Source of the DNA: a virus
DNA length: 10,260 bases
Strand: one strand, 5' to 3'
Virus genome (UHGV): UHGV-0142786
Part shown: piece by piece, positions 1 through 10,260 of the stretch
Numbering within the stretch: position 1 is the first letter of the stretch
Layout: each line of letters starts with the position of its first letter
Program-made: the position numbers and the translations under genes
The notes under the pieces: generated by a model
What the model was told of the DNA's origin: nothing
Databases searched by the model: none
What the model saw: the letters and a program-made list of their open reading frames with translations, nothing else

Positions 1-217
1 TTAAGGCGAGTTTTCGAATCTTAAGTTTATCTTTCTGTTTCTGCTCCTCTCGTCGCCGTTTCTTCTCTGCTGCTTTTTCCGCTTTTTTTCGCTGTTTACT
101 TTGTAGTTCGAGTGCTAACTGAGTTCCGTGTTCCGGGCAGCACCACCACTGATTTGAGAATGCCGGGTGAAACCATTCCTTGCATATTTTGCATTTCCTT
201 CGCGCTGGTTTAGCCAT
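1..217 (-). CDS. ninG: NinG/Rap recombination endonuclease, N-terminal part; gene runs off the left edge of the window
   Basis: Minus-strand ATG at 217..215 overlaps the upstream stop (TAATG). Translation [72 protein letters not shown] matches my recollection of lambda NinG/Rap N-terminus. Not in the ORF track because it is truncated. Confidence 0.75.
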
Positions 218-939
218 TAAGCAGCCTCCCCTGTTACTTTCAGCATTCCGTTATCGAGCAGCTTTCTGGTCAGCCACTGTTGACCACGCCCGGTGATTTT
301 TGTGGTGAACGATATCTGTATTCCGTGATTTGTGTTGACCGCTGTTTCTTTCACTGTGAAATAGCCGCGATCCATATATTCCTGCATTGGCACATTGCGC
401 CGGGAACCTGAAGCAATAAGGATTTTGTGATCGCGCATCCACGCAAACAGTTTGTTTGGACCAATACCGACAACCTTTGCAAAGTTTCCAATCAAAATTC
501 CGCTGGCCTCGCCAACTCGATCGGCAAACTCAACTTTAGGTGCGGCAATTGCGAGCTGGTTTTCCAGTTGCATTTTCTGCTCAGCAAGATCAGCAGCAAG
601 GCGCAACGCTTCTGGTAGCGTTTTGGGGATATTAACCGCAGCTTCTTCAAGCTCTCGCCAGCGGTCAACAAGGCGAGCGGTGAATTCCGGCGACAACTGG
701 GCAACAACGACAATACTGTCTCGCTTACCTTGTTCGCCTTCGAAGACGTAATGCTCGTACTGAACATTGAACCCTAAGTTATTGATTCTTTCGGAAACCT
801 CAATTTGAGGAAGCCGGATAACACCATTTTTAGCCAGCGTTTCGATGGTACGTTTCACATTGTCATGACGCTTACCCACCAACTCAGCGATTTCAATGCT
901 TGTCATTTTGATGGCATTGCCATTTATTAACTCATTCAT
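217..939 (-). CDS. Phage regulatory protein, Rha family N-terminal domain plus KilA-C/AntA-type antirepressor C-terminal domain (Roi/Ant-like)
   Basis: 240-aa ORF. N-terminal motif [24 protein letters not shown] is typical of the Rha domain; C-terminal [24 protein letters not shown]...GYF is typical of KilA-C. Start ATGAATGA overlaps the ninF stop. Confidence 0.8.
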
Positions 940-1779: not shown

Positions 1780-2648
1780 GCAGCTTCCCTCCCGAAGTCG
1801 AAATCAAGCTGCCCTCCAAATATTTCGCATGACTCAGAACAAGAGCCGGTATCGAATCTTTTAGCTCGTACCATGTCCTGATACAGGGCTTGATAATCAT
1901 TTTCTGAATACATTTTCGCGATACCGTCCAGCGACATTCTTCCTCGGTACATAATCTCCTTTGGCGTTTCCCGATGTCCGTCACGCACATGGGATCCCGT
2001 GATGACCTCATTAAAAACACGCTGCAATCCCTCCTCATCTTTGCAGGCAAGTCCGATTTTTTGCGTTGATTTTTTAATGCAGAATATGCAGTTACCGAGA
2101 TGTTCCGGTATTTGCAAATCGAATGGTTGTTGCTTCCACCATGCGAGGATATCTTCCTTCTCAAAGTCTGACAGTTCAGCAAGATATCTGATTCCAGGCT
2201 TTGGCTTTAGCCGCTTCGGTTCATCAGCTCTGATGCCAATCCACGTGGTGTAATTCCCTCGCCCGAAATGGTCATCACAGTATTTGGTGAAGGGAACGAG
2301 TTTTAATCTGTCAGTGCAGAACGCGCCGCCGACGTATGGAGTGCCATATTTCTTTACCATATCGATAAATGGCTTCAGAACAGGCATTCGCGTCTGAATA
2401 TCCTTTGGTTCCCATACCGTATAACCATTTGGCTGTCCAAGCTCCGGGTTGATATCAACCTGCAATACGGTGAGCGGTATATCCCAGAACTTCACAACTT
2501 CCCTGACAAACCGATATGTCATTGGATGTTCACAACCTGTATCCATGAAAACGTAATACACGTCTTCACCTGCCTGTCGCTTTTGCTCCATTAGCCAGAG
2601 TAAATATGCTGACGTCCTGCCACCTGAGAAACTAACGACATTTATCAT
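1776..2648 (-). CDS. ninC: NinC, PAPS-reductase-like family protein (290 aa)
   Basis: Track ORF 1776..2666. True start taken as [17 protein letters not shown] (ATG 2648..2646), which overlaps the HNH stop as [12 protein letters not shown] resembles the PAPS-reductase/ATP-PPase P-loop. Near-identical to my recollection of lambda NinC. Confidence 0.85.
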
Positions 2649-3247
2649 GCAGCCCTGTCTCCCCATCTTGCTTTCATTGTTTCATTTGCAAATCGCCAGA
2701 ATCTTCCTTTGTGATATGAGCTTTCGCCATTACAGCAACGACTAATTGACGAACTATCAAATCCTTCTCTGACAGCATCCATAGCTGCTTCATAATAAAC
2801 CTCCTCACCAGTTTTCATGTCAGTAGAAATAACAGCTTTACTGGCAGGATGATCACCGCTAAATTTACCTAGCGATATAGGTATTCTTCCATTTTGTTTA
2901 TATCCGTGCTTTGAGTTTTCAGAATGTGATACCCATTCAAGGTTTTCAGCCCTATTGTCATCTCTTTGCCCATTTTTGTGATTAACTACCAAGCCATCAC
3001 AGAACCCTGTACAGAATGCTTTCGCAACTATCCTGTGGGCGCTGTATTTCTTACCGTATACCTTTATTTGAAGATATCCTGTCGACTTGCACTTGAATGG
3101 TTTTACGCTAGTGCCATTAATTATTTTCTTATATGGCCTCTGTCTGGTTGATGTTACTGTAACTTCCCTCGTAATAGACCTGAAATTTCCTTTATTGCTA
3201 ACCTGATAAAATGGAATCCCTTCGATATCTACCCAAACCTCAATCAT
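2645..3247 (-). CDS. HNH homing endonuclease (NUMOD4 + HNH_3 type), inserted at the 3' end of ninB
   Basis: 200-aa ORF. N-terminal EVWVDIEGIPFYQVSNKGNFRS resembles NUMOD4; HKNGQRDDNRAENLEWVSHSENSKHG is an HNH_3 motif. Own GGAGG Shine-Dalgarno. The last 9 residues KARWGDRAA equal the lambda NinB C-terminus. Confidence 0.85.
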   Translation of the reverse strand: MIEVWVDIEGIPFYQVSNKGNFRSITREVTVTSTRQRPYKKIINGTSVKPFKCKSTGYLQIKVYGKKYSAHRIVAKAFCTGFCDGLVVNHKNGQRDDNRAENLEWVSHSENSKHGYKQNGRIPISLGKFSGDHPASKAVISTDMKTGEEVYYEAAMDAVREGFDSSSISRCCNGESSYHKGRFWRFANETMKARWGDRAA

Positions 3248-3656
3248 AATTCCTCCATTCGCTAAGATGAATTGAGTTCATGGCACAATATGCTTCTATG
3301 TAGTCCATTATTTCGGATATTTTTTTTACAGATAGAGTCGCCGTACTCTCTCTGATGTTTATTAGCTCACCTTCTAACCCTGATATAATCTCAGGGTGCT
3401 GGTTGGTTGCAATTTGCCAACCAGAAACGAATAACCCCTTCCAAAACTCAATATTTCTTTCTTTTCCATGATATGTGGCCTTCTTACTTATTTCAGATAG
3501 CATCGCGTGAAGGCGTGCATTTTGCCGAATGCTGCGGTTGCGTTCCTGAATGGTTACTACGATTGGTTTGGTTGGGTCTGGAAGAATTTGCTGCACCGCG
3601 TGAATAGCGTTTTGCTGATGTGCTGGAGATCGAATTTCAAAGGTTAGTTTTTTCAT
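3240..3656 (-). CDS. ninB: NinB (Orf-family recombination mediator), mosaic and C-terminally altered
   Basis: Track ORF 3240..3674 starts at a TTG; the ATG at 3656 gives MKKLTFEIRSPAHQQNAIHAVQQILPDPTKPIVVTIQERNRS, identical to the lambda NinB N-terminus as I recall it. The rest is divergent but collinear, and it ends ...LSEWRNYD instead of ...[14 protein letters not shown]. Confidence 0.8.
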   Translation of the reverse strand: MKKLTFEIRSPAHQQNAIHAVQQILPDPTKPIVVTIQERNRSIRQNARLHAMLSEISKKATYHGKERNIEFWKGLFVSGWQIATNQHPEIISGLEGELINIRESTATLSVKKISEIMDYIEAYCAMNSIHLSEWRNYD

Positions 3657-3733: not shown

Positions 3734-5614
3734 TTAATACTCCGTCACGTTTTCCTGTCGCCACGCCTCGTCATATTCCGATTTCGGCATATTGGCGATG
3801 TAGCTATATGGCGATCCTGATTCAAGTTGCAGGAACTGGTGCGATTGCTCATCAAGGAACAACGGGACGCCACCTTCCCAACCTTCGCCGTTACGTTGTT
3901 TTTCAAGCATCAAAACAGATGCCGGAGACGCCAGTACCTGTTCGTCCTTCTCTGACATCTTTTCACCACTCTGAACTCTCTGTAACGCTCTCTCGCGAGC
4001 CTTGTTACGCCAGATGATGAAAAGGTTGTCTGTCAGGTCTGTTATCGCTCCAGAGCCTTTTACGTCCATTTTCCCGGTTGGTTTTTCTTCGCTGTCTCCT
4101 TTTCTGGAGTGAGTAACGAGAATGACGTGGGAGTTTGTTTTGTTTTTGAAGTCACAAATCGAGTCAACAAATGCTTTCTGCCCGTTATAGTCATCGTCAC
4201 CTATGCCGCATTTCATCAGGCTGTCGATGATGAATAACTGGATCCCGTATCGGCGGCGAGCGTAGTCGAATATTTCGATCAGCCTGTCGGCTTTCGCCGT
4301 TCCGGTCAGGCCAAACACCCAAAGTCTTTCGTCATAAAATTTAAATGCAGAGTCAATTTCCAGCACTGGCGGCATCTTGCAGCACGTCGCCTGACGGGTA
4401 AGGCGCTTAAGGAGAATACCAGGCTTCAGCTCAAGTGACGCGATGCACGTCTTCACACCCTGACGCATTGCCTCAAGTGCCATATGCCCGACAACCTCCG
4501 TTTTTCCGTGACCGTTCACACCATTGACCAGCGTCAACTCTGCCTCACGGAACTGGAATTTATCTGCCAGAGATTCCCACGGTGGATTAAACAGATACTG
4601 CTGCTTGCCGTAGAAAGCGTTGATAGTGTCCTGGTAAAACTCTCGCGCGCTGTAGAGTTCTTCAGGGTCGAAGTAGGATGCCGTGCCGATGTACTGCCAG
4701 ATTTCATCCTCGGTAACACCGTTCATCAGGCATTCGTTGATGTCTTTGTACGGCAGAGTAACAAGACGGCAACGATGTTCACCGAGTCGGCTTGCGATTT
4801 CCCTTGCGGCTTCACGACCAACATCATCAACGTCCATCGAGATGAATATTTCCTCAAACCTGTCGAGATTGTGATACTCAAACTCAATCCACTGCTGCTT
4901 AGCGCCTTTCCCGCCACCAAACGGCACGGATAACGCCGAGATGCCGTATTGCGCATAGCTCATACAATCAATTTCGCCTTCGCAAAGTACAACCGCCCTC
5001 ACGCCAGCGTCCAGAGCCTGCCATCCGAACAGACAAGGTTCGCAATCACCTTCTGCCATAATGACTTTCTTCCCGTCCGGGCGCTCAGTGCTGATTCGCT
5101 TGACCTGCAACAACTCACCATCGCGTTTGTACGGAATCACCAGAGCATCCAGTTCCCGCTCTCCATTCCACACCTTGCCGCTGACAACCTCGTAGCGCTT
5201 TACGACTTCTGGCGATATGCCACGCGATTGCAGGTACTCAAGATGGGATTCTGTTCTGGTAACGTAGCGGGCGATTTTCTTGCGATCAGGTCTGGAGAAT
5301 TTCTTCTCACGTTTGGCATCGAAATGGTGATCGTCATCCTTGATACCGAGAAATGCTTTCGCTTCCTGCATAGCCTGATGCAGGTTAATTCCACGACATG
5401 CCATCCACAAATCAAGCATGTCACCGCCGTCTCCCTCAGCGAAATCAGCCCATTTTTTCTTTCCGCTAAGGTTGACCTTAAGGCTGTTTCCCTTGTCACC
5501 GTTGACGTTACCGGCAACCCACTCATGCCCCTCTTTCTTGCCGTTTGGCAACAGGTGCGGAGCCACCCTGTCAACCTGCGCCCAAAGCAGGTCGCTAAGT
5601 TCACTTGGCCTCAT
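3734..5614 (-). CDS. Bifunctional DNA primase/helicase (TOPRIM domain plus RecA-fold DnaB/T7-gp4-like helicase), 626 aa
   Basis: TOPRIM-like acidic motifs VVLCEGEIDCMSYAQ and ISMDVDDVG; Walker A GVNGHGKTE; Walker B-like LFIIDSL. Occupies the lambda P position downstream of the O-like gene. GAGGG Shine-Dalgarno 5 nt upstream. Confidence 0.8.
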   Translation of the reverse strand: MRPSELSDLLWAQVDRVAPHLLPNGKKEGHEWVAGNVNGDKGNSLKVNLSGKKKWADFAEGDGGDMLDLWMACRGINLHQAMQEAKAFLGIKDDDHHFDAKREKKFSRPDRKKIARYVTRTESHLEYLQSRGISPEVVKRYEVVSGKVWNGERELDALVIPYKRDGELLQVKRISTERPDGKKVIMAEGDCEPCLFGWQALDAGVRAVVLCEGEIDCMSYAQYGISALSVPFGGGKGAKQQWIEFEYHNLDRFEEIFISMDVDDVGREAAREIASRLGEHRCRLVTLPYKDINECLMNGVTEDEIWQYIGTASYFDPEELYSAREFYQDTINAFYGKQQYLFNPPWESLADKFQFREAELTLVNGVNGHGKTEVVGHMALEAMRQGVKTCIASLELKPGILLKRLTRQATCCKMPPVLEIDSAFKFYDERLWVFGLTGTAKADRLIEIFDYARRRYGIQLFIIDSLMKCGIGDDDYNGQKAFVDSICDFKNKTNSHVILVTHSRKGDSEEKPTGKMDVKGSGAITDLTDNLFIIWRNKARERALQRVQSGEKMSEKDEQVLASPASVLMLEKQRNGEGWEGGVPLFLDEQSHQFLQLESGSPYSYIANMPKSEYDEAWRQENVTEY

Positions 5615-5718
5615 GATTCCCTCAGATTGAGATTTTTAAACCAGAAATCGACAAACGAAATACTTAACCAGCCGTGGTTATAACCAGCGACCAGTAGCGA
5701 TTTGATTTTTGATTTCAT
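5611..5718 (-). CDS. Candidate small ORF (35 aa) between the O-like gene and the primase-helicase
   Basis: Hand translation MKSKIKSLLVAGYNHGWLSISFVDFWFKNLNLRES. AGGTGA Shine-Dalgarno upstream; stop TGA overlaps the primase ATG (ATGA). Too short for the ORF track; no homology recognised. Confidence 0.3.
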   Translation of the reverse strand: MKSKIKSLLVAGYNHGWLSISFVDFWFKNLNLRES

Positions 5719-5721
5719 GGT

Positions 5722-6582
5722 TCACCTGTCGAAAAACACGTAGCCAGTTTTCGATACGGTGATTGCGGATGATGGTTTGGATTGTGGTTGAATGGTTTCT
5801 GGCTTTTCGTCGTTCCAGCGCTGACCGTTCAGGTAGCTCGATGGTAATAACCTGTCGAATCCGAACTGCTTACCATTCCTGCATGCGATGTCTTCTGCCA
5901 GCATCGTGGCAAACTCGCTTGCCGTACCCCTGGTAGTTTTACGCCATTCCCTGAACTGTGTTCTGAATGCCGAAGCTGCGTTTTTCTTCCCGGCCTTCCG
6001 CATGCCTGCACACCAGAATATTTCCTCGAATGCCTTGTCGGTTTCTTCGTGACGGTCAGGTGATTTTTCACACTCCGTCCGAACACTTTCGGACATAGTG
6101 TTTTTATTATTTCTTTTTTCTTTTGTAATAGTTTCTTTTGTGTGTCCCTGTTTTGGTGACAGCGCTGTCACCGTTTTGGTGACACTTTTTGTCACCAATG
6201 CAGTGACATTATCACCAGAGTAGTGACACCCTTCGATTTGCCATTCCTCGATGTTCTTGTTAGGCCCGATTTGCTGGCCTTCGCGAAGGATAACCTTCAT
6301 CGCGATAAGCTCATTCTTGGCCTTGTTTACCTTCTGTCTTGGCAGCCTGGTAATTTGAGCTAACTGACTATCAGAGATGCGATCCATCTTTTTACCGTAG
6401 CCGTATGTTTTACGGCATATGGCGTGGGCAACCTTGCTCTGATTTTTCGTTAAATCTGCGCCGATAAGCTCTTCATACAGGGCATTTGCAAGACGGGTAT
6501 AACCATCTTCAACTTCTGCCACACGACGCTCCACAGGCCGTTGTGAAGGCCTTAAATGTGTTACGGTTGCAAGATTACTCAT
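5722..6582 (-). CDS. Replication initiator with lambda-O-like N-terminal iteron-binding domain and a non-lambda C-terminal domain
   Basis: 286-aa [94 protein letters not shown] aligns with my recollection of the lambda O N-terminal domain. Iterons and an AT-rich tract lie inside the gene, as in ori-lambda. Confidence 0.85.
6093..6230. repeat. Candidate replication origin inside the O-like gene: four GTGACA-type iterons plus an adjacent AT-rich tract
   Basis: Perfect 18-bp palindrome GGTGACAGCGCTGTCACC (6155-6172); GGTGACACTTTTTGTCACC (6178-6196); GTGACATTATCACC (6204-6216); GTGACAC (6223-6229). AT-rich tract at about 6093-6150. In gene orientation: iterons first, then AT-rich, as in ori-lambda. 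Confidence 0.65.
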
Positions 6583-6753: not shown

Positions 6754-7050
6754 TCAGAATTGCATATCAATTTGCTTAAAATCCTCGGTGGCGGCCGGGG
6801 ATTTTTTCTTTGTGAGTCCATCAAGCGCATACTTAAAAGCCCTGCTAATCGGACTGATGTCTGATGCCATTCCGAAAGCACACAAGACCGAAGCAATAAA
6901 TCTCCAGTCCGTTCTGCTTATCTTCGATTCATGACAGCCAATCATCTTTGCCAGACCGCGCTGGGTAAGCGTTGACAGGTTGATGAGTAAATCAGTTTCA
7001 GCGCGATCAATTTCTCGCTGTGTTGGCTTGCTGTAACTTGTTTGTGCCAT
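6754..7050 (-). CDS. cII: CII-like transcriptional activator (98 aa)
   Basis: C-terminus [19 protein letters not shown] against lambda CII TNKKRPAATERSEQIQMEF; central [11 protein letters not shown] against lambda SQISRWKRDW. Lies between cro and the replication genes. Confidence 0.8.
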
Positions 7051-7135
7051 TTCTTAATATTTCCAATAGTGAATAGTTAGTTGAAAGGTATGCGTGGAAA
7101 CGCATATGGCCTTAGTTGGTCAGATATCTTGGGAC

Positions 7136-7181
7136 TCGCTTTTCAGCGACGTAGGACGAATGTCCGTTATTACAAAGAGCG
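7136..7181 (-). promoter_or_regulatory. nutR candidate: boxA-like CGCTCTTTG and boxB-like hairpin UCGCUGAAAAGCGA, 23 nt apart
   Basis: On the minus strand, boxA at 7181..7173 starts 11 nt after the cro stop; boxB hairpin at 7149..7136. Same architecture and spacing as the nutL candidate upstream of N. Confidence 0.55.
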
Positions 7182-7191
7182 GCTCCGCTTA

Positions 7192-7407
7192 TTAAGCAGC
7201 TTTGTGCTCCGGCGGGAACACATCATCAAGACTTACTTTTGCGCCTAACTTGTTTAGACACGCAACAAGAGCACGGCATGTTTTAAGGTCTGGGAAGCGA
7301 CGACCAGATTCCCAATGTCCGATAGCTCCCTGTGTGCATCCAACTGCCTTAGCAAGTGTTGTTTGAGAGATATTCAGTGACTCTCGATATTTTCGTAGGT
7401 TGCTCAT
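7192..7407 (-). CDS. cro: Cro-like HTH repressor (71 aa)
   Basis: Small HTH protein ([23 protein letters not shown]) transcribed divergently from cI, with a GGAGG Shine-Dalgarno. Confidence 0.8.
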
Positions 7408-7524
7408 ATGCCCTCCATAGTAACCACAAATAAAAAATACAATATGTACTCATTAAACACAAGCAAAAAATACACATTGTGCATGGATGGTTCCAGTACA
7501 AAGCGTAATAATAAGGACATGAAA
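7408..7524. promoter_or_regulatory. Divergent cro/cI control region (OR with PR and PRM)
   Basis: 117-bp gap between the divergent cro and cI starts. Two similar sites: AAAAAATACAATATGTAC (7433-7450) and AAAAAATACACATTGTGC (7465-7482), the second holding the palindrome CACATTGTG. Exact -10/-35 boxes not resolved. Confidence 0.55.
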
Positions 7525-8178
7525 ATGAAATGGTATGAACTGGCTAGATCCAGAATGAAAGAGCTCGGCATAACTCAAGAGAAGTTAGCCGAAGAGCTAG
7601 GTATGACGCAGGGTGGAATTGGACACTGGTTGCGCGGATCTCGTCATCCATCTCTTAGTGATATTGGTGTGGTGTTTAAATACCTTGGTATTGATAACAT
7701 ATCATTCAACCACGACGGGACATTTTCACCTGTTGGCGAATACTCATCGGCCCCAGTTAAAAAACAATATGAGTACCCTGTTTTTTCTCATGTTCAGGCT
7801 GGGATGTTCTCTCCAGAACTCAGAACCTTTACCAAAGGCGATGCGGAGAGATTGGTAAGCACAACCAAAAAAGCCAGTGACTCTGCATTCTGGCTTGAGG
7901 TTGAAGGTAACTCAATGACCGCACCAACAGGTTCCAAACCTAGTTTTCCTGACGGGATGTTAATTCTGGTTGACCCAGAGCAAGCTGTTGAGCCCGGCGA
8001 TTTCTGCATAGCCAGACTTGGTGGTGATGAGTTTACCTTCAAGAAACTGATCAGGGATAGCGGTCAGGTGTTTCTACAGCCACTAAACCCACAATACCCA
8101 ATGATCCCATGCAATGAGAGTTGTTCCGTTGTGGGGAAAGTTATCGCTAGTCAGTGGCCTGAAGAGACGTTTGGGTAG
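7525..8178 (+). CDS. cI: CI prophage repressor: HTH N-terminal domain plus LexA/S24-type autocleavage C-terminal domain
   Basis: C-terminal domain from [14 protein letters not shown] to WPEETFG is essentially identical to lambda CI as I recall it; the N-terminal domain is unrelated to lambda. Track ORF from 7408 is over-extended into the cro start. ATG 7525 has an AAGGA Shine-Dalgarno at 7 nt; ATG 7519 is the alternative. Confidence 0.85.
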
Positions 8179-8366
8179 AGGCGAAGCAGCAATTGGTTTG
8201 ATTTGGTATTGCTATTTTTTCTCTAAAGTTGTTGAGCATTTTTCCGTTAGATAAAAATAGACGCAAATTTACATGATTTTTTTGTGCTGTATTGCTTGCT
8301 GAAAGCTAGGTTTTGCGTAAACTTCAATTACTCAAATTAGAGTAAACAACATATAGGACACCCCAC

Positions 8367-8588
8367 ATGAAAAAATCTGCAAAGCACTTTTTCAGCGCTA
8401 TGGGCTCTATCCTTGACCTTTGCCCAGCAGGTAGCTACAGCGAGTATCATTCAAATGCTACAGACATCGACCTTATCAACTCAGATTGGGTTAAGGTAGG
8501 TAGTTACGTTAGAGACGCTGTAACTGATAATGAGCAGAAAAAAATCCCAAAGAAAGCTTCAAACCGCCGCCCCGAGAAATCTTGTTAA
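8367..8588 (+). CDS. Hypothetical small protein (73 aa as read), first ORF of the rex-position cassette
   Basis: AGGA Shine-Dalgarno 8 nt upstream of ATG 8367. No homology recognised. The 3' end overlaps the next ORF by 59 nt across an A7 run. Confidence 0.5.
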   Translation: MKKSAKHFFSAMGSILDLCPAGSYSEYHSNATDIDLINSDWVKVGSYVRDAVTDNEQKKIPKKASNRRPEKSC

Positions 8589-9063
8589 CCAACCAACTCC
8601 GTTAGGGCGAGTTCAAGACGGTAAAACCGAACTGCTTATAAATGAGGTCGCAAAGAACCCTCAAGTTCTTGAGCGCCTCATGGACAGGCCAGATCTAGCT
8701 GGCATCATGATGCAGGTGACTCACACTAGATCAGGGCCACTCCCAGACGCTGACGAATTAGCTAAGTACGAAAGAATATCTCCAGGATTCGCTCGCGAAA
8801 TAATGGACATGGCTAAGGCTGAGCAAAAACACAGACACGAGTATTACAAAGCAGGACAGAGGGGAGCAATTTGGCGAGATCGACTCGGACAGATCTTTGC
8901 GATGACTTCTGTCTTTGTTTTCGCAGGAATTGCTTACAAGATGATTCAGCACGAGGCTTATGGCTGGGCTACCGGGCTTCTTGGTGCTGAGTTAGTTGCT
9001 TTAACTAGCGTGTTTATAATTGGAAGAAGAGACAAACCGAATCCAAAGCAAACTAAAAAATGA
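8530..9063 (+). CDS. Hypothetical membrane protein with two C-terminal transmembrane helices, possibly DUF2335-like
   Basis: 177-aa ORF. Motif LPDADELAKYERISPGFAREIMDMAKAEQKHRHEY followed by hydrophobic IFAMTSVFVFAGIAY and WATGLLGAELVALTSVFIIG. The DUF2335 assignment is from memory and unverified. No clear Shine-Dalgarno at 8530. Confidence 0.6.
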   Translation: MSRKKSQRKLQTAAPRNLVNQPTPLGRVQDGKTELLINEVAKNPQVLERLMDRPDLAGIMMQVTHTRSGPLPDADELAKYERISPGFAREIMDMAKAEQKHRHEYYKAGQRGAIWRDRLGQIFAMTSVFVFAGIAYKMIQHEAYGWATGLLGAELVALTSVFIIGRRDKPNPKQTKK

Positions 9064-9066
9064 GAC

Positions 9067-9093
9067 AACCCGGCTTCCGCGCCGGGTTTTCTT
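9067..9093 (+). terminator. Rho-independent terminator closing the cI/rex-position operon
   Basis: Stem CCCGGC (9069-9074) / GCCGGG (9081-9086), then TTTTCTTT, directly after the stop at 9063. Confidence 0.7.
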
Positions 9094-9277
9094 TGCCTAA
9101 CGCCCCCAAAAAAACACATAACCAATTGTATTTATTTTAAAATTAATAGATACAACTCACTAAACAACGCAATTCTGATCTCTCCCTACATCGCCGAGGC
9201 AATACACCCACGCTAAAAAACAACACTATTAAATACAAAGCGTTGTAAAAAACCACCCCTCAATAGAACAAATCGTA

Positions 9278-9306
9278 TTGACCAGATAAAGTACATATCG
9301 TACTAT
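9278..9306 (+). promoter_or_regulatory. Candidate PL promoter
   Basis: TTGACC (9278-9283), 17-bp spacer, TACTAT (9301-9306), upstream of nutL and N. TACAA/TTGTA palindromes nearby at 9234-9247 and 9124-9134 may be OL sites. Confidence 0.4.
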
Positions 9307-9352
9307 TTAATCATCAGCAGGACGCTGGAAGCCAAATGGAACAGACTGGCAG

Positions 9353-9398
9353 GCTCTTTAAACAACGTCGAACACTCGACTACGTGGCTGAAAAGCCA
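9353..9398 (+). promoter_or_regulatory. nutL candidate: boxA-like GCTCTTTAA and boxB-like hairpin UGGCUGAAAAGCCA, 23 nt apart
   Basis: boxA at 9353-9361 (GGCTCTTTAAACAA resembles rrn boxA); boxB hairpin at 9385-9398. Same layout as the nutR candidate. Confidence 0.55.
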
Positions 9399-9422
9399 GA
9401 CCACCCAACCACATAAGCTGTG

Positions 9423-9472
9423 GGATGCAATGCCGAAGCAACCGGCTCAGGAGGAGCTTCGAGATTGCATCG
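9423..9472 (+). other. Long imperfect hairpin in the N leader, candidate RNase III processing or translational control structure
   Basis: GATGCAAT (9423-9430) pairs with ATTGCATC (9465-9472); CGAAGC (9433-9438) pairs with GCTTCG (9456-9461). Lies between nutL and the N Shine-Dalgarno GGGAGG (9486-9491). Confidence 0.4.
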
Positions 9473-9496
9473 CCAAAGTTTATTCGGGAGGAATCT

Positions 9497-9769
9497 ATGT
9501 CCAGAAAAACAGAATTTAAAGGCACCGCAGCTTCTCGCCGTAGAGCTCGTCGTGCAAACCTGCAAAGTCAGGAGGCGATCAGCTCTGACAAACTACACAG
9601 GCCAACCCCTTCACGAGTGGTCTTACAATGCAAACGCAAACCAGTAATGAGAGCAGAAGTAATAACACTGACAACGTTGACCAGAAAATATGAAGGCTCA
9701 ACTTGTCTTCCAAATGTAGCCATTTACGCGGCAGGCTACAGGAAATCCAAACAGCTGACAGCAAGATGA
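9497..9769 (+). CDS. N: N-type transcription antiterminator (90 aa)
   Basis: Arginine-rich motif GTAASRRRARRANLQ near the N-terminus; C-terminus LPNVAIYAAGYRKSKQLTAR resembles my recollection of P22 gene 24 (LPGVALYAAGHRKSKQITAR). Track ORF from 9425 is over-extended; ATG 9497 follows GGGAGG. Confidence 0.8.
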   Translation: MSRKTEFKGTAASRRRARRANLQSQEAISSDKLHRPTPSRVVLQCKRKPVMRAEVITLTTLTRKYEGSTCLPNVAIYAAGYRKSKQLTAR

Positions 9770-9819
9770 CTTGTGTTGGTCGCCAGAAAATGAAATTAGG
9801 CAGCAAACCACTTATTTGA
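9766..9819 (+). pseudogene. Fossil 3' end of a lambda-type N gene (17 codons), recombination scar
   Basis: Translation MTCVGRQKMKLGSKPLI resembles the lambda N C-terminus ITCSGRQKIKGKSIPLI. Starts one nucleotide before the functional N stop, in the +1 frame. Confidence 0.45.
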
Positions 9820-9827
9820 GGTGAGAT

Positions 9828-9914
9828 ATGGAAGAAGAATTTGAAGAGTTCGAAGAGCATCCTCAGGATGTGATGGAACAATACCAGGACTATCCGTATG
9901 ACTGCGACTATTGA
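9828..9914 (+). CDS. Candidate small acidic protein (28 aa)
   Basis: Hand translation MEEEFEEFEEHPQDVMEQYQDYPYDCDY. Strong GAGGTGA Shine-Dalgarno 6 nt upstream of ATG 9828. Too short for the ORF track; no homology recognised. Confidence 0.35.
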   Translation: MEEEFEEFEEHPQDVMEQYQDYPYDCDY

Positions 9915-10041
9915 TAAGAATCAATGGTGTGGGCAATACGAACGACGGCAATGATTGTCAGAGAACTTGGTAAACAGAACAACAAAGCTGCCTGATAGTG
10001 GCCTTTATTTTTGGCATAAATAACAGAATAAACACTGCACT

Positions 10042-10069
10042 GTGTATTCATTCCAACGAGTGAATACAC
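10042..10069. other. Inverted repeat GTGTATTCA / TGAATACAC with a 10-nt spacer
   Basis: Perfect 9-bp arms (10042-10050 and 10061-10069). Not followed by a T-run, so not an intrinsic terminator; could be a protein-binding site or RNA structure. Confidence 0.3.
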
Positions 10070-10131
10070 GGAGCAATGTCGCTCGTAACTAAACAGGAGC
10101 CGACTTGTTCTGATTATTGGAAATCTTCTTT

Positions 10132-10157
10132 GCCCTCCAGTGTGAGGGCGATTTTTT
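10132..10157 (+). terminator. Rho-independent terminator (tL1-like) downstream of N
   Basis: Stem GCCCTC (10132-10137) / GAGGGC (10144-10149), loop CAGTGT, then GATTTTTTAT. Confidence 0.6.
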
Positions 10158-10177
10158 ATCTGTGAGGATATGAATAG

Positions 10178-10260
10178 ATGTCAAACATCAAAAAATACAT
10201 CATTAATTACGACTGGAAAGCATCAATAGAAATTGAAATCGACCATGACGTAATGACAGA
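10178..10260 (+). CDS. Hypothetical protein, 5' end only; runs off the right edge of the window
   Basis: ATG 10178 preceded by GAGGA (10164-10168); open frame MSNIKKYIINYDWKASIEIEIDHDVMT continues to the window end. No homology recognised. Confidence 0.4.
   Translation, partial: MSNIKKYIINYDWKASIEIEIDHDVMT

Follow-up and report, generated by a model that had tools for sequence, protein, structure and literature searches.

Here, we describe a two-gene cassette carried by the UHGV virus genome UHGV-0142786, of which a stretch of 10,260 nucleotides (nt), referred to as the window, was analyzed. The window covers the early region of a lambda-like Escherichia coli prophage, with the leftward direction of lambda running along the + strand. 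The cassette lies between the cI repressor gene and a homolog of the lambda terminator t_imm, is co-oriented with cI, and consists of two overlapping open reading frames (ORFs), namely ORF1 for a small soluble protein and ORF2 for a membrane protein of the DUF2335 family (Table 1). An earlier reading of the DNA letters (the first-pass annotation) had taken it for a candidate phage-exclusion or abortive-infection module. The feature is real and sharply bounded, and it proved more general than that annotation could see. New here are a nucleotide-exact substitution for rexAB, the obligate pairing of ORF1 with DUF2335 across phyla, and the fusion of an ORF1-like domain to a Panacea domain.

A nucleotide-exact replacement of rexA-rexB

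The left boundary of the cassette is formed by a hybrid repressor, whose overall identity to lambda cI is 71%. Its N-terminal, DNA-binding helix-turn-helix (HTH) domain differs from that of lambda, while the C-terminal S24 domain is of the lambda type, with the last ~137 residues being identical except for a single leucine that replaces tryptophan in AER-L/W-VS. Such a combination of an unrelated HTH and a nearly identical lambda S24 domain shows recombination within the repressor gene. At the DNA level, identity to lambda stops at the cI stop codon, returns at the t_imm hairpin that follows rexB, and then continues toward oL/PL, and from this break and resumption of the alignment, positions 8179-9066 are a precise replacement of rexA-rexB. 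The stem of the terminator hairpin at the right boundary has 8 bp, six of them G-C pairs, and aligns with the hairpin located just 3' of lambda rexB. Neither protein of the cassette resembles its counterpart in lambda, as BLASTP gave E-values of 11 for ORF2 against RexB and of 1.6 for ORF1 against RexA, and there was no match to a Pfam Rex family.

The anatomy given in the first-pass annotation held up well. Its placing of the cassette in the 'rexAB position downstream of cI' is literally true at the nucleotide level, what follows cI is indeed not rex, the length of the AT-rich spacer is as given, and the 'clean terminator' is a G+C-rich hairpin with a T-run behind it. The CI C-terminal domain, on the other hand, is 'lambda-identical up to its stop' at all residues but the one named above. 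The view of this interval as a hotspot also found support, since its cargo differs among related phages, with rexAB present in lambda and a NYN-domain gene, between flanks common on both sides, in the four relatives HK544, CL707, 2B8, and ev099.

Moreover, among 5,426 complete E. coli genomes, 21 carry the identical cassette, which is found behind at least two cI alleles and beside differing N genes. As the stretch common to these prophages is 8148-9102, the cassette moves as a unit that includes the spacer and the terminator. Where the cI allele of the matching prophage is a different one, the alignment begins at 8148, and the spacer travels with the two genes.

As for the product of ORF1, hydropathy gives no hydrophobic or transmembrane (TM) segment, and the core has an isoelectric point (pI) of 5.1. 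The AlphaFold2 (AF2) model, with a predicted local distance difference test (pLDDT) score of 78, shows a helix-loop-helix made up of helices 2-18 and 33-59. Conservation is found only in residues ~1-56, which carry the motif AMGSILDxxPxxxY...D...I..DW..VG, and the tail that falls within the overlap is not conserved. Between diverged copies, the ratio of nonsynonymous to synonymous substitution rates (dN/dS) of this core is 0.17-0.36. The exact ORF1 sequence was located on 815 contigs, with homologs also in Citrobacter, and matched phrog_26284 (E 1.5e-39, positions 1-65 of 65), a family that covers only its close enterobacterial relatives. There was no match for ORF1 in Pfam, NCBIfam, or PADLOC, and Pfam returned no match, and no Panacea domain, for 72 members of the ORF1 family. 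A profile search with ORF1 among 1.84 billion cluster representatives gave 79 matches at E<=1e-3, nearly all of 60-90 residues and with the motif in common. Some ORF1-family proteins have an N-terminal hydrophobic segment of their own (L012, 1189-1455; L013, 309-554; P0166; and P0211), which probably anchors the small partner of these lineages in the membrane.

ORF2 belongs to DUF2335, for which the first-pass annotation had proposed a search, with a Pfam score of 63.8 bits (cut-off 25; E 1.4e-17) for residues 72-121 over the full 50-position model. Together with residues 69-71, this signature reads GPLPxxxELxxYExxxPGxAxEI..MA..EQ.HRH, and the conserved motif quoted earlier, PGFAREIMDMAKAEQKHRHEY, is the core of Pfam DUF2335. 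Across 77 sequences, P70 and P72 are invariant, and G69, L71, Y80, P85, H101, and R102 nearly so. ORF2 also matched phrog_3996 ('membrane protein'; E 9.4e-43, positions 6-147 of 152), which PHROGs places in the category 'moron'. The description of the cassette as 'unrecognized' therefore stands for ORF1 but not for ORF2, which RefSeq calls a 'DUF2335 domain-containing protein', and both proteins have a PHROG family. Neither DUF2335/phrog_3996 nor phrog_26284, all uncharacterized families, records the obligate pairing.

The two C-terminal TM helices that had been claimed along with the motif are present in the AF2 model of ORF2 as a continuous helix 87-140 and a helix 144-167, with pLDDT values above 90 (93-96 for residues 121-160). 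Hydropathy over a 19-residue Kyte-Doolittle window has its maximum of 1.78 at residues 147-165, with TM1 being less hydrophobic. The N-terminus is basic and disordered, with a charge of +6 in the first 30 residues, the C-terminal tail is also basic, and ORF2 has a pI of 10. From the model, hydropathy, and charge, we predict a helical cytoplasmic region that carries the signature, followed by a two-helix hairpin, in an N-in/C-in topology, with almost nothing in the periplasm. Homologs of ORF2 with 47-93% identity come from Enterobacter, Cronobacter, Kluyvera, Pectobacterium, Pantoea, and uncultivated viral contigs. Both ORFs are under purifying selection and are conserved to 47% identity and beyond. 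NCBIfam held nothing meaningful for either protein, sequence searches of the PDB with both family profiles gave nothing below E 0.27, and a Foldseek comparison of the ORF2 model with the PDB gave no match.

Pairing of the ORF1 family with DUF2335

To follow the two families beyond close relatives, a hidden Markov model (HMM) of ORF1 was built from 74 proteins of the profile search and run against every ORF of at least 35 residues in 51 fetched DUF2335 loci. Exactly one match was found in 50 of the 51 loci, and this was always immediately upstream of the DUF2335 gene or overlapping with it. These paired loci span Enterobacterales, Pseudomonas, a Staphylococcus phage, and metagenome-assembled genomes (MAGs) of Desulfobacteraceae and Bacteroidales, and the matches include ORFs left unannotated by the depositors (phage RAH1 and P. 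aeruginosa). At L013, the only miss, a small ORF whose C-terminal motif is similar lies upstream. In the reverse direction, four proteins (P0163, P0172, P0166, and P0162) were picked from the ORF1 profile search alone, and a DUF2335 gene follows in all four cases. The ORF1 family is the obligate partner of DUF2335 across phyla. Here, as in a toxin-antitoxin arrangement, the genes are co-oriented and either overlap or lie no more than 100 nt apart, and their pairing is conserved across species.

The same picture came from other searches. With ORF2 as the query, tblastn of phage genomes revealed distant DUF2335 genes, each following a small overlapping ORF, in Klebsiella phage RAH1, E. coli Uetakevirus ZX5, Staphylococcus phage E72, and Pseudomonas phage MD8. 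On long contigs (Cronobacter, Pectobacterium, and a contig with 47% identity), a cI-like repressor gene is followed by an ORF1 homolog of 73-74 residues at all loci examined. The Uetakevirus-type pair is very common in E. coli. Its DUF2335 protein (P0045), though only ~28% identical to the ORF2 of the window, is found on at least 1000 E. coli contigs, and the index of the assembly collection lists it in 2,240 blocks. A locus scan of genome contigs returned five loci. One short contig (L009; JAJXBQ010000280.1, 3.5 kb) from a MAG labeled Segatella copri encodes a DUF2335 protein that is 100% identical to ORF2 and has an ORF1-family gene whose score equals that of the window-identical copies. Almost certainly, this contig came from an Enterobacterales prophage and entered the MAG as a contaminant during binning.

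With regard to genomic context, the pair occupies moron positions in temperate phages, next to the integrase gene in E72 and MD8 and beside the antirepressor gene in RAH1 and ZX5, and elsewhere it stands alone as a two-gene islet flanked by housekeeping genes, such as efp/kdsB in L053, or beside recJ in L044. In the Klebsiella phage vB_Kpn_RAH1 (L031, 3959-4399), the DUF2335 pair sits among tail genes along with an antirepressor and a predicted lipoprotein, the ORF1-like gene (3284-3481) being unannotated in the record. This lipoprotein has a signal peptide with an LAGC lipobox and could be a second exclusion-type moron.

In one relative, P0163 (238 residues), a SocA_Panacea domain (PF13274, E 1.3e-21) is fused to an ORF1-like domain at the C-terminus, and its gene overlaps the start of a 153-residue DUF2335 gene by 8 nt. 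The nearby kaiA indicates a cyanobacterial chromosomal context for this locus. Proteins with a Panacea domain have been established by experiment as antitoxins that bind and neutralize toxins of diverse kinds, and of the nine toxins validated, three are transmembrane and membrane-depolarizing (PMC8832971).

Expression signals, gene overlap, and prophage setting

A terminator scan found no terminator on the + strand between cI and the cassette and, on the analogy of the cI-rexA-rexB operon of lambda, co-transcription with cI in the lysogen would be the expected default. The cassette may have a promoter of its own as well. A promoter-like non-coding block is kept in five of seven aligned cassettes (window, L003, L008, L022, and L023), some of which (window, L003, and L022) show an ORF1 dS of ~0.9-1.5 between them. 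Because of its weak hexamers, this block was missed by a consensus promoter scan. An inverted repeat just behind it recurs at the same place in diverged copies with different stems (TCAAC...GTTGA and ACTCA...TGAGT), and it is possibly an operator or a hairpin of the 5' untranslated region. Together, we regard the conserved block and the repeat as a candidate promoter and operator of the cassette. In translation, ORF1 has the good Shine-Dalgarno noted in the first-pass annotation, which is retained as GAGG/AGGA in its homologs, while the start of ORF2 lies within ORF1 and has no obvious Shine-Dalgarno of its own, and this difference would favor an excess of ORF1. Rfam gave no match at E<=1 on either strand of 7000-10260, and hence there is no known small RNA or antisense antitoxin in this region.

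The 59-nt overlap of the two genes was absent from the first-pass account. Most homologous pairs overlap by 8-74 nt (~41-62 nt in Cronobacter, Pectobacterium, the 47%-identity contig, and the viral contigs), and two pairs have a gap of 55-73 nt instead. Within the overlap, substitutions are concentrated on the third codon positions of ORF2. It also contains a run of seven adenines (A7; 8538-8544), and with ORF2 lying in the +1 frame and ORF1 being left unannotated by RefSeq in matching genomes, one might suppose that ORF1 is not a separate gene, but either a chance ORF or one fused to ORF2 by frameshifting or slippage at this run. A decayed locus, L046, would fit a fusion in that an A10 run at the equivalent junction (~4100-4115) brings the DUF2335 N-terminus into frame with the ORF1 domain, although this locus is truncated. 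Against such a view, the run is missing in L007, L008, and the distant pairs, yet both ORFs persist, the ATG and the basic N-terminus of ORF2 are conserved, and ORF1 is found across phyla with its own start, Shine-Dalgarno, and motif. We accordingly rejected programmed frameshifting, since the run is not conserved whereas both ORFs and the ORF2 start are. A chance ORF is ruled out by conservation, dN/dS, and the HMM survey, and the whole alternative strikes us as extremely improbable. Homopolymer slippage may, for all that, occasionally fuse or uncouple the two genes.

The remaining features of the window are those of a lambdoid early region (Table 1). Its replication module (3734-6582, - strand) pairs a Phage_rep_O protein with the primase-helicase, instead of lambda O/P, and in E. 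coli SLK172 (L001), the neighbor of the same cassette is an O/P/ren module of the lambda type, and IS3 and IS100 insertions are present. The homing-endonuclease-like gene overlaps ninB and the phosphoadenosine phosphosulfate (PAPS)-reductase-like gene by a few bases each. Directly 3' of N, there is a small and very acidic ORF (MEEEFEEFEEHPQDVMEQYQDYPYDCDY) at 9829-9915, and in the identical prophage of L001, RefSeq marks a short Ral-family fragment at ~9924-9995.

Table 1. Features of the window, with positions counted from its first nucleotide.
Feature	Position	Strand	Remarks
Rha/KilAC antirepressor	217-939	-	Pfam
NinF, NinX, NinE, PAPS-reductase-like gene, NinB		-	nin region
NUMOD4/HNH_3 homing-endonuclease-like gene	2645-3247	-	between ninB and the PAPS-reductase-like gene
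Toprim_2/AAA_25/DnaB_C primase-helicase, 626 residues	3734-5614	-	Pfam
CII		-	early region
Cro-like HTH protein	7192-7407	-	
cI repressor	7483-8178	+	left boundary; Pfam HTH_3 and Peptidase_S24; start as in RefSeq WP_001302016.1
AT-rich spacer, 188 bp	8179-8366	+	34% G+C, against 46% in the window
Candidate cassette promoter	8296-8323	+	TTGCTG (8296-8301), 16 nt, TAAACT (8318-8323)
Short inverted repeat	8330-8343	+	ACTC-N6-GAGT, just 3' of the candidate -10
Shine-Dalgarno of ORF1	8355-8358	+	AGGA, 8 nt 5' of the ATG at 8367
ORF1, 73 residues	8367-8588	+	soluble, acidic core; family without a Pfam model
ORF1/ORF2 overlap, 59 nt	8530-8588	+	ORF2 in the +1 frame relative to ORF1
ORF2, 177 residues	8530-9063	+	DUF2335 protein; Pfam PF10097; RefSeq WP_000087627.1
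DUF2335 signature	8743-8892	+	ORF2 residues 72-121; Pfam alignment
Membrane hairpin	8881-9030	+	TM1 ~118-140, loop HEAYGW, TM2 ~144-167
Intrinsic terminator	9067-9095	+	right boundary; homolog of lambda t_imm; hairpin 9067-9088, then T-run
PL-like promoter	9278-9306	+	TTGACC, 17 nt, TACTAT; region homologous to lambda oL/PL
N antiterminator	9497-9769	+	Pfam N_peptide, E 2.2e-32

Possible function of the cassette

On the best-supported reading, the cassette may be a toxin-antitoxin-like module, expressed in the lysogen, in which a membrane effector is held in check by a small neutralizer, and which probably serves abortive infection or exclusion. ORF2 would insert in the inner membrane by way of its C-terminal hairpin, leaving the conserved N-terminal domain in the cytoplasm, and as the effector, it would probably compromise membrane integrity or potential when unrestrained. 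The acidic, two-helix ORF1 would bind the cytoplasmic part of ORF2 and keep it inactive, and given the better translation signal, it would be made in excess. The charges of the acidic ORF1 core and the basic ORF2 are complementary. The genomic setting, as a two-gene insert among housekeeping genes or at moron positions, is likewise toxin-antitoxin-like, as is the decayed L046, in which the ORF1 domain is intact and the membrane part of DUF2335 has been lost. Also in favor are the exact substitution for rexA-rexB with no terminator found in between, the purifying selection on both genes, and the promoter-like block of the spacer. Transcription in the lysogen would read through from cI (PRM) to t_imm, as for rexAB, and probably also start from the cassette's own promoter. 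What the prophage would likely gain is that superinfecting phages are excluded or met by abortive infection, its own stabilization coming as a side effect, and the module would then be RexAB-like in action but built from unrelated proteins. The 'small protein plus membrane protein' logic of the first-pass annotation is strengthened by the obligate pairing across phyla and by the Panacea fusion. Nevertheless, as ORF1-ORF2 binding, toxicity, membrane action, lysogen expression, and a defense role are all steps that we infer, the probability of the model is rated at only about 0.4, and a defense interpretation is reasonable but unproven.

Several observations weigh against this model. ORF1 appears to be without the DNA-binding domain typical of type II antitoxins (Pfam and the AF2 model reveal no regulatory or DNA-binding domain in either protein), and toxin-antitoxin genes do not typically overlap over such a length. 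The hydrophobicity of TM1 is no more than moderate, and the near-invariant GPLP...Y...PG...HR suggests a specific interaction or a catalytic role rather than a simple pore-former. Moreover, the Panacea fusion is confined to one lineage (three contigs), and the domain is suggestive of an antitoxin function but no proof of it. PADLOC-DB v2.0.0 gave no match for ORF1 or ORF2 at E<=1, and among 77 DUF2335 members there were just two single marginal matches (E 0.002-0.003), which we took as chance. A defense-database search had been put forward in the first-pass annotation and, while the anatomy, the rexAB slot, and the paired-gene logic of that reading were upheld, it brought no known defense homolog. 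A literature search likewise yielded no evidence of exclusion, abortive infection, or toxicity for any family member, and DUF2335 is not named among the PanT toxin families in the Panacea (PMC8832971) and NetFlax papers and the supplements searched. The validated membrane PanT clusters are without a conserved-domain match (PMC8832971), and are therefore probably families different from DUF2335.

Rather than acting as a toxin and its neutralizer, ORF1 and ORF2 could form an inner-membrane complex that blocks phage genome entry without killing, as do P22 SieA, T4 Imm, and HK97 gp15. An inner-membrane hairpin protein in classic exclusion or moron slots would suit such a role, be it the rexAB slot here or the Uetakevirus-type slot between antirepressor and tailspike, which is analogous to the sieA region of P22, and so would the 'moron' category of ORF2 in PHROGs. 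However, with a predicted periplasmic exposure of ~6 residues (HEAYGW), nearly all the conserved residues are cytoplasmic, the presence of the pair in Gram-positive phages and in chromosomal housekeeping contexts is an ill fit to a block tailored to a single injection machinery, the Panacea fusion is more in line with the neutralization of a toxin, and the three TM segments and the sequence motif of SieA are absent. Consequently, we see entry blocking as unlikely. Less likely than this is a non-toxic accessory function in the membrane, with the two proteins as a signaling or anchoring pair, for instance a regulator tether affecting prophage induction, envelope stress, or host physiology. Here, the highly conserved cytoplasmic motif resembles a binding site, some ORF1-family proteins carry a membrane anchor of their own (P0166, P0211, and the Bacteroidales copies), and the pair follows the antirepressor gene in RAH1- and ZX5-type phages, but the lack of a detectable regulatory domain in both proteins, the antitoxin nature of the fusion partner, and a distribution as a mobile two-gene islet that does not suggest integration in host pathways all speak for something else.

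The toxin-antitoxin-like evidence cited for our model would equally serve pure addiction, in which the pair merely retains the prophage or islet and has no anti-phage role. A scattering over chromosomes as two-gene inserts is a typical trait of selfish toxin-antitoxin cassettes. Yet there is a strong enrichment of the pair at those moron sites of temperate phages that are expressed in the lysogen, the exclusion site of lambda among them, and many toxin-antitoxin systems at moron sites proved to be defense systems, and we give pure addiction the lowest standing among these functional alternatives, albeit that the two roles are not mutually exclusive. Returning to the toxin-antitoxin-like model, a wider form of it can be offered tentatively, and with somewhat less assurance than for the cassette itself. 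The ORF1 family and DUF2335 might constitute an undescribed toxin-antitoxin or abortive-infection family with members in several phyla and with temperate phages as the main vehicle of its spread, DUF2335 serving as a new membrane-acting effector, the ORF1 domain (alone, membrane-anchored, or Panacea-fused) as a new neutralizer or sensor, and the pair as a RexAB substitute in lambdoids.

The cassette is more than a local oddity, as the pair is present in Staphylococcus, Pseudomonas, and Klebsiella phages and in the chromosomes of several phyla. Were the toxin-antitoxin reading true, DUF2335 would gain a function, a missing small gene that RefSeq skips would be added to the annotation, and there would be a compact two-protein model of how a small soluble protein gates a membrane effector. 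Even if that reading fails, the strict pairing demands an explanation. The contents of the cI-N slot in other phages offer a direct route to new defense mechanisms.

Comparison with known systems

The slot between cI and N is the home of the oldest known phage-exclusion system, that of lambda. Like RexAB, the cassette described here is a two-gene unit in this same slot that pairs a cytoplasmic component with one of the inner membrane and is presumably lysogen-expressed, and its internal promoter-like element is comparable to the lambda pLIT for rexB. Still, RexB has four membrane helices and RexA 279 residues, whereas the cassette has a two-helix hairpin and a 73-residue partner with no sequence similarity to either. 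Moreover, the soluble partner in the Rex model activates the channel, while the Panacea fusion suggests that here it would restrain the effector. Homology to RexA/RexB (BLASTP) or to SieA (comparison of its features) was looked for and not found.

A small soluble protein that neutralizes a membrane toxin is also known from SpoIISA-SpoIISB of Bacillus subtilis, in which a 56-residue antitoxin binds the cytoplasmic domain of the toxin. This likeness is one of analogy only, as SpoIISA has three TM helices at its N-terminus, the gene order is reversed, and the Pfam match of ORF2 is to DUF2335 alone. As regards the literature on DUF2335 itself, no function has been assigned in what is searchable, and the terms PF10097 and COG5346 gave nothing useful. 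A 'DUF2335 phospholipase', or Tle1-like lipase, in papers on type VI (T6SS) and type IVB (T4BSS) secretion system effectors is evidently a slip for DUF2235 (Tle1), and because of this, text searches for DUF2335 give misleading functional hints.

SieA of P22 is likewise a prophage-expressed small inner-membrane protein from a moron slot, and the Uetakevirus-type pair is located near the tailspike and antirepressor genes, much as sieA is in P22. However, SieA is a single gene whose product has three predicted TM segments and a cytoplasmic FxRYPxEAxxFNK motif (PMC10883804), as opposed to ORF2, with its two TM helices and no such motif.

Finally, the PanA-PanT systems (Kurata et al. 2022, PMC8832971) share with the cassette an upstream antitoxin-like gene, a downstream membrane protein with a charged N-terminus and C-terminal TM helices, an overlap or close spacing of the two genes, and an occurrence in phages and chromosomes across phyla. 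The difference here is that the ORF1 of the window has no Panacea (PF13274) domain. Strictly taken, the cassette therefore falls outside the PanAT systems, unlike its relative P0163 with the Panacea-ORF1 fusion.

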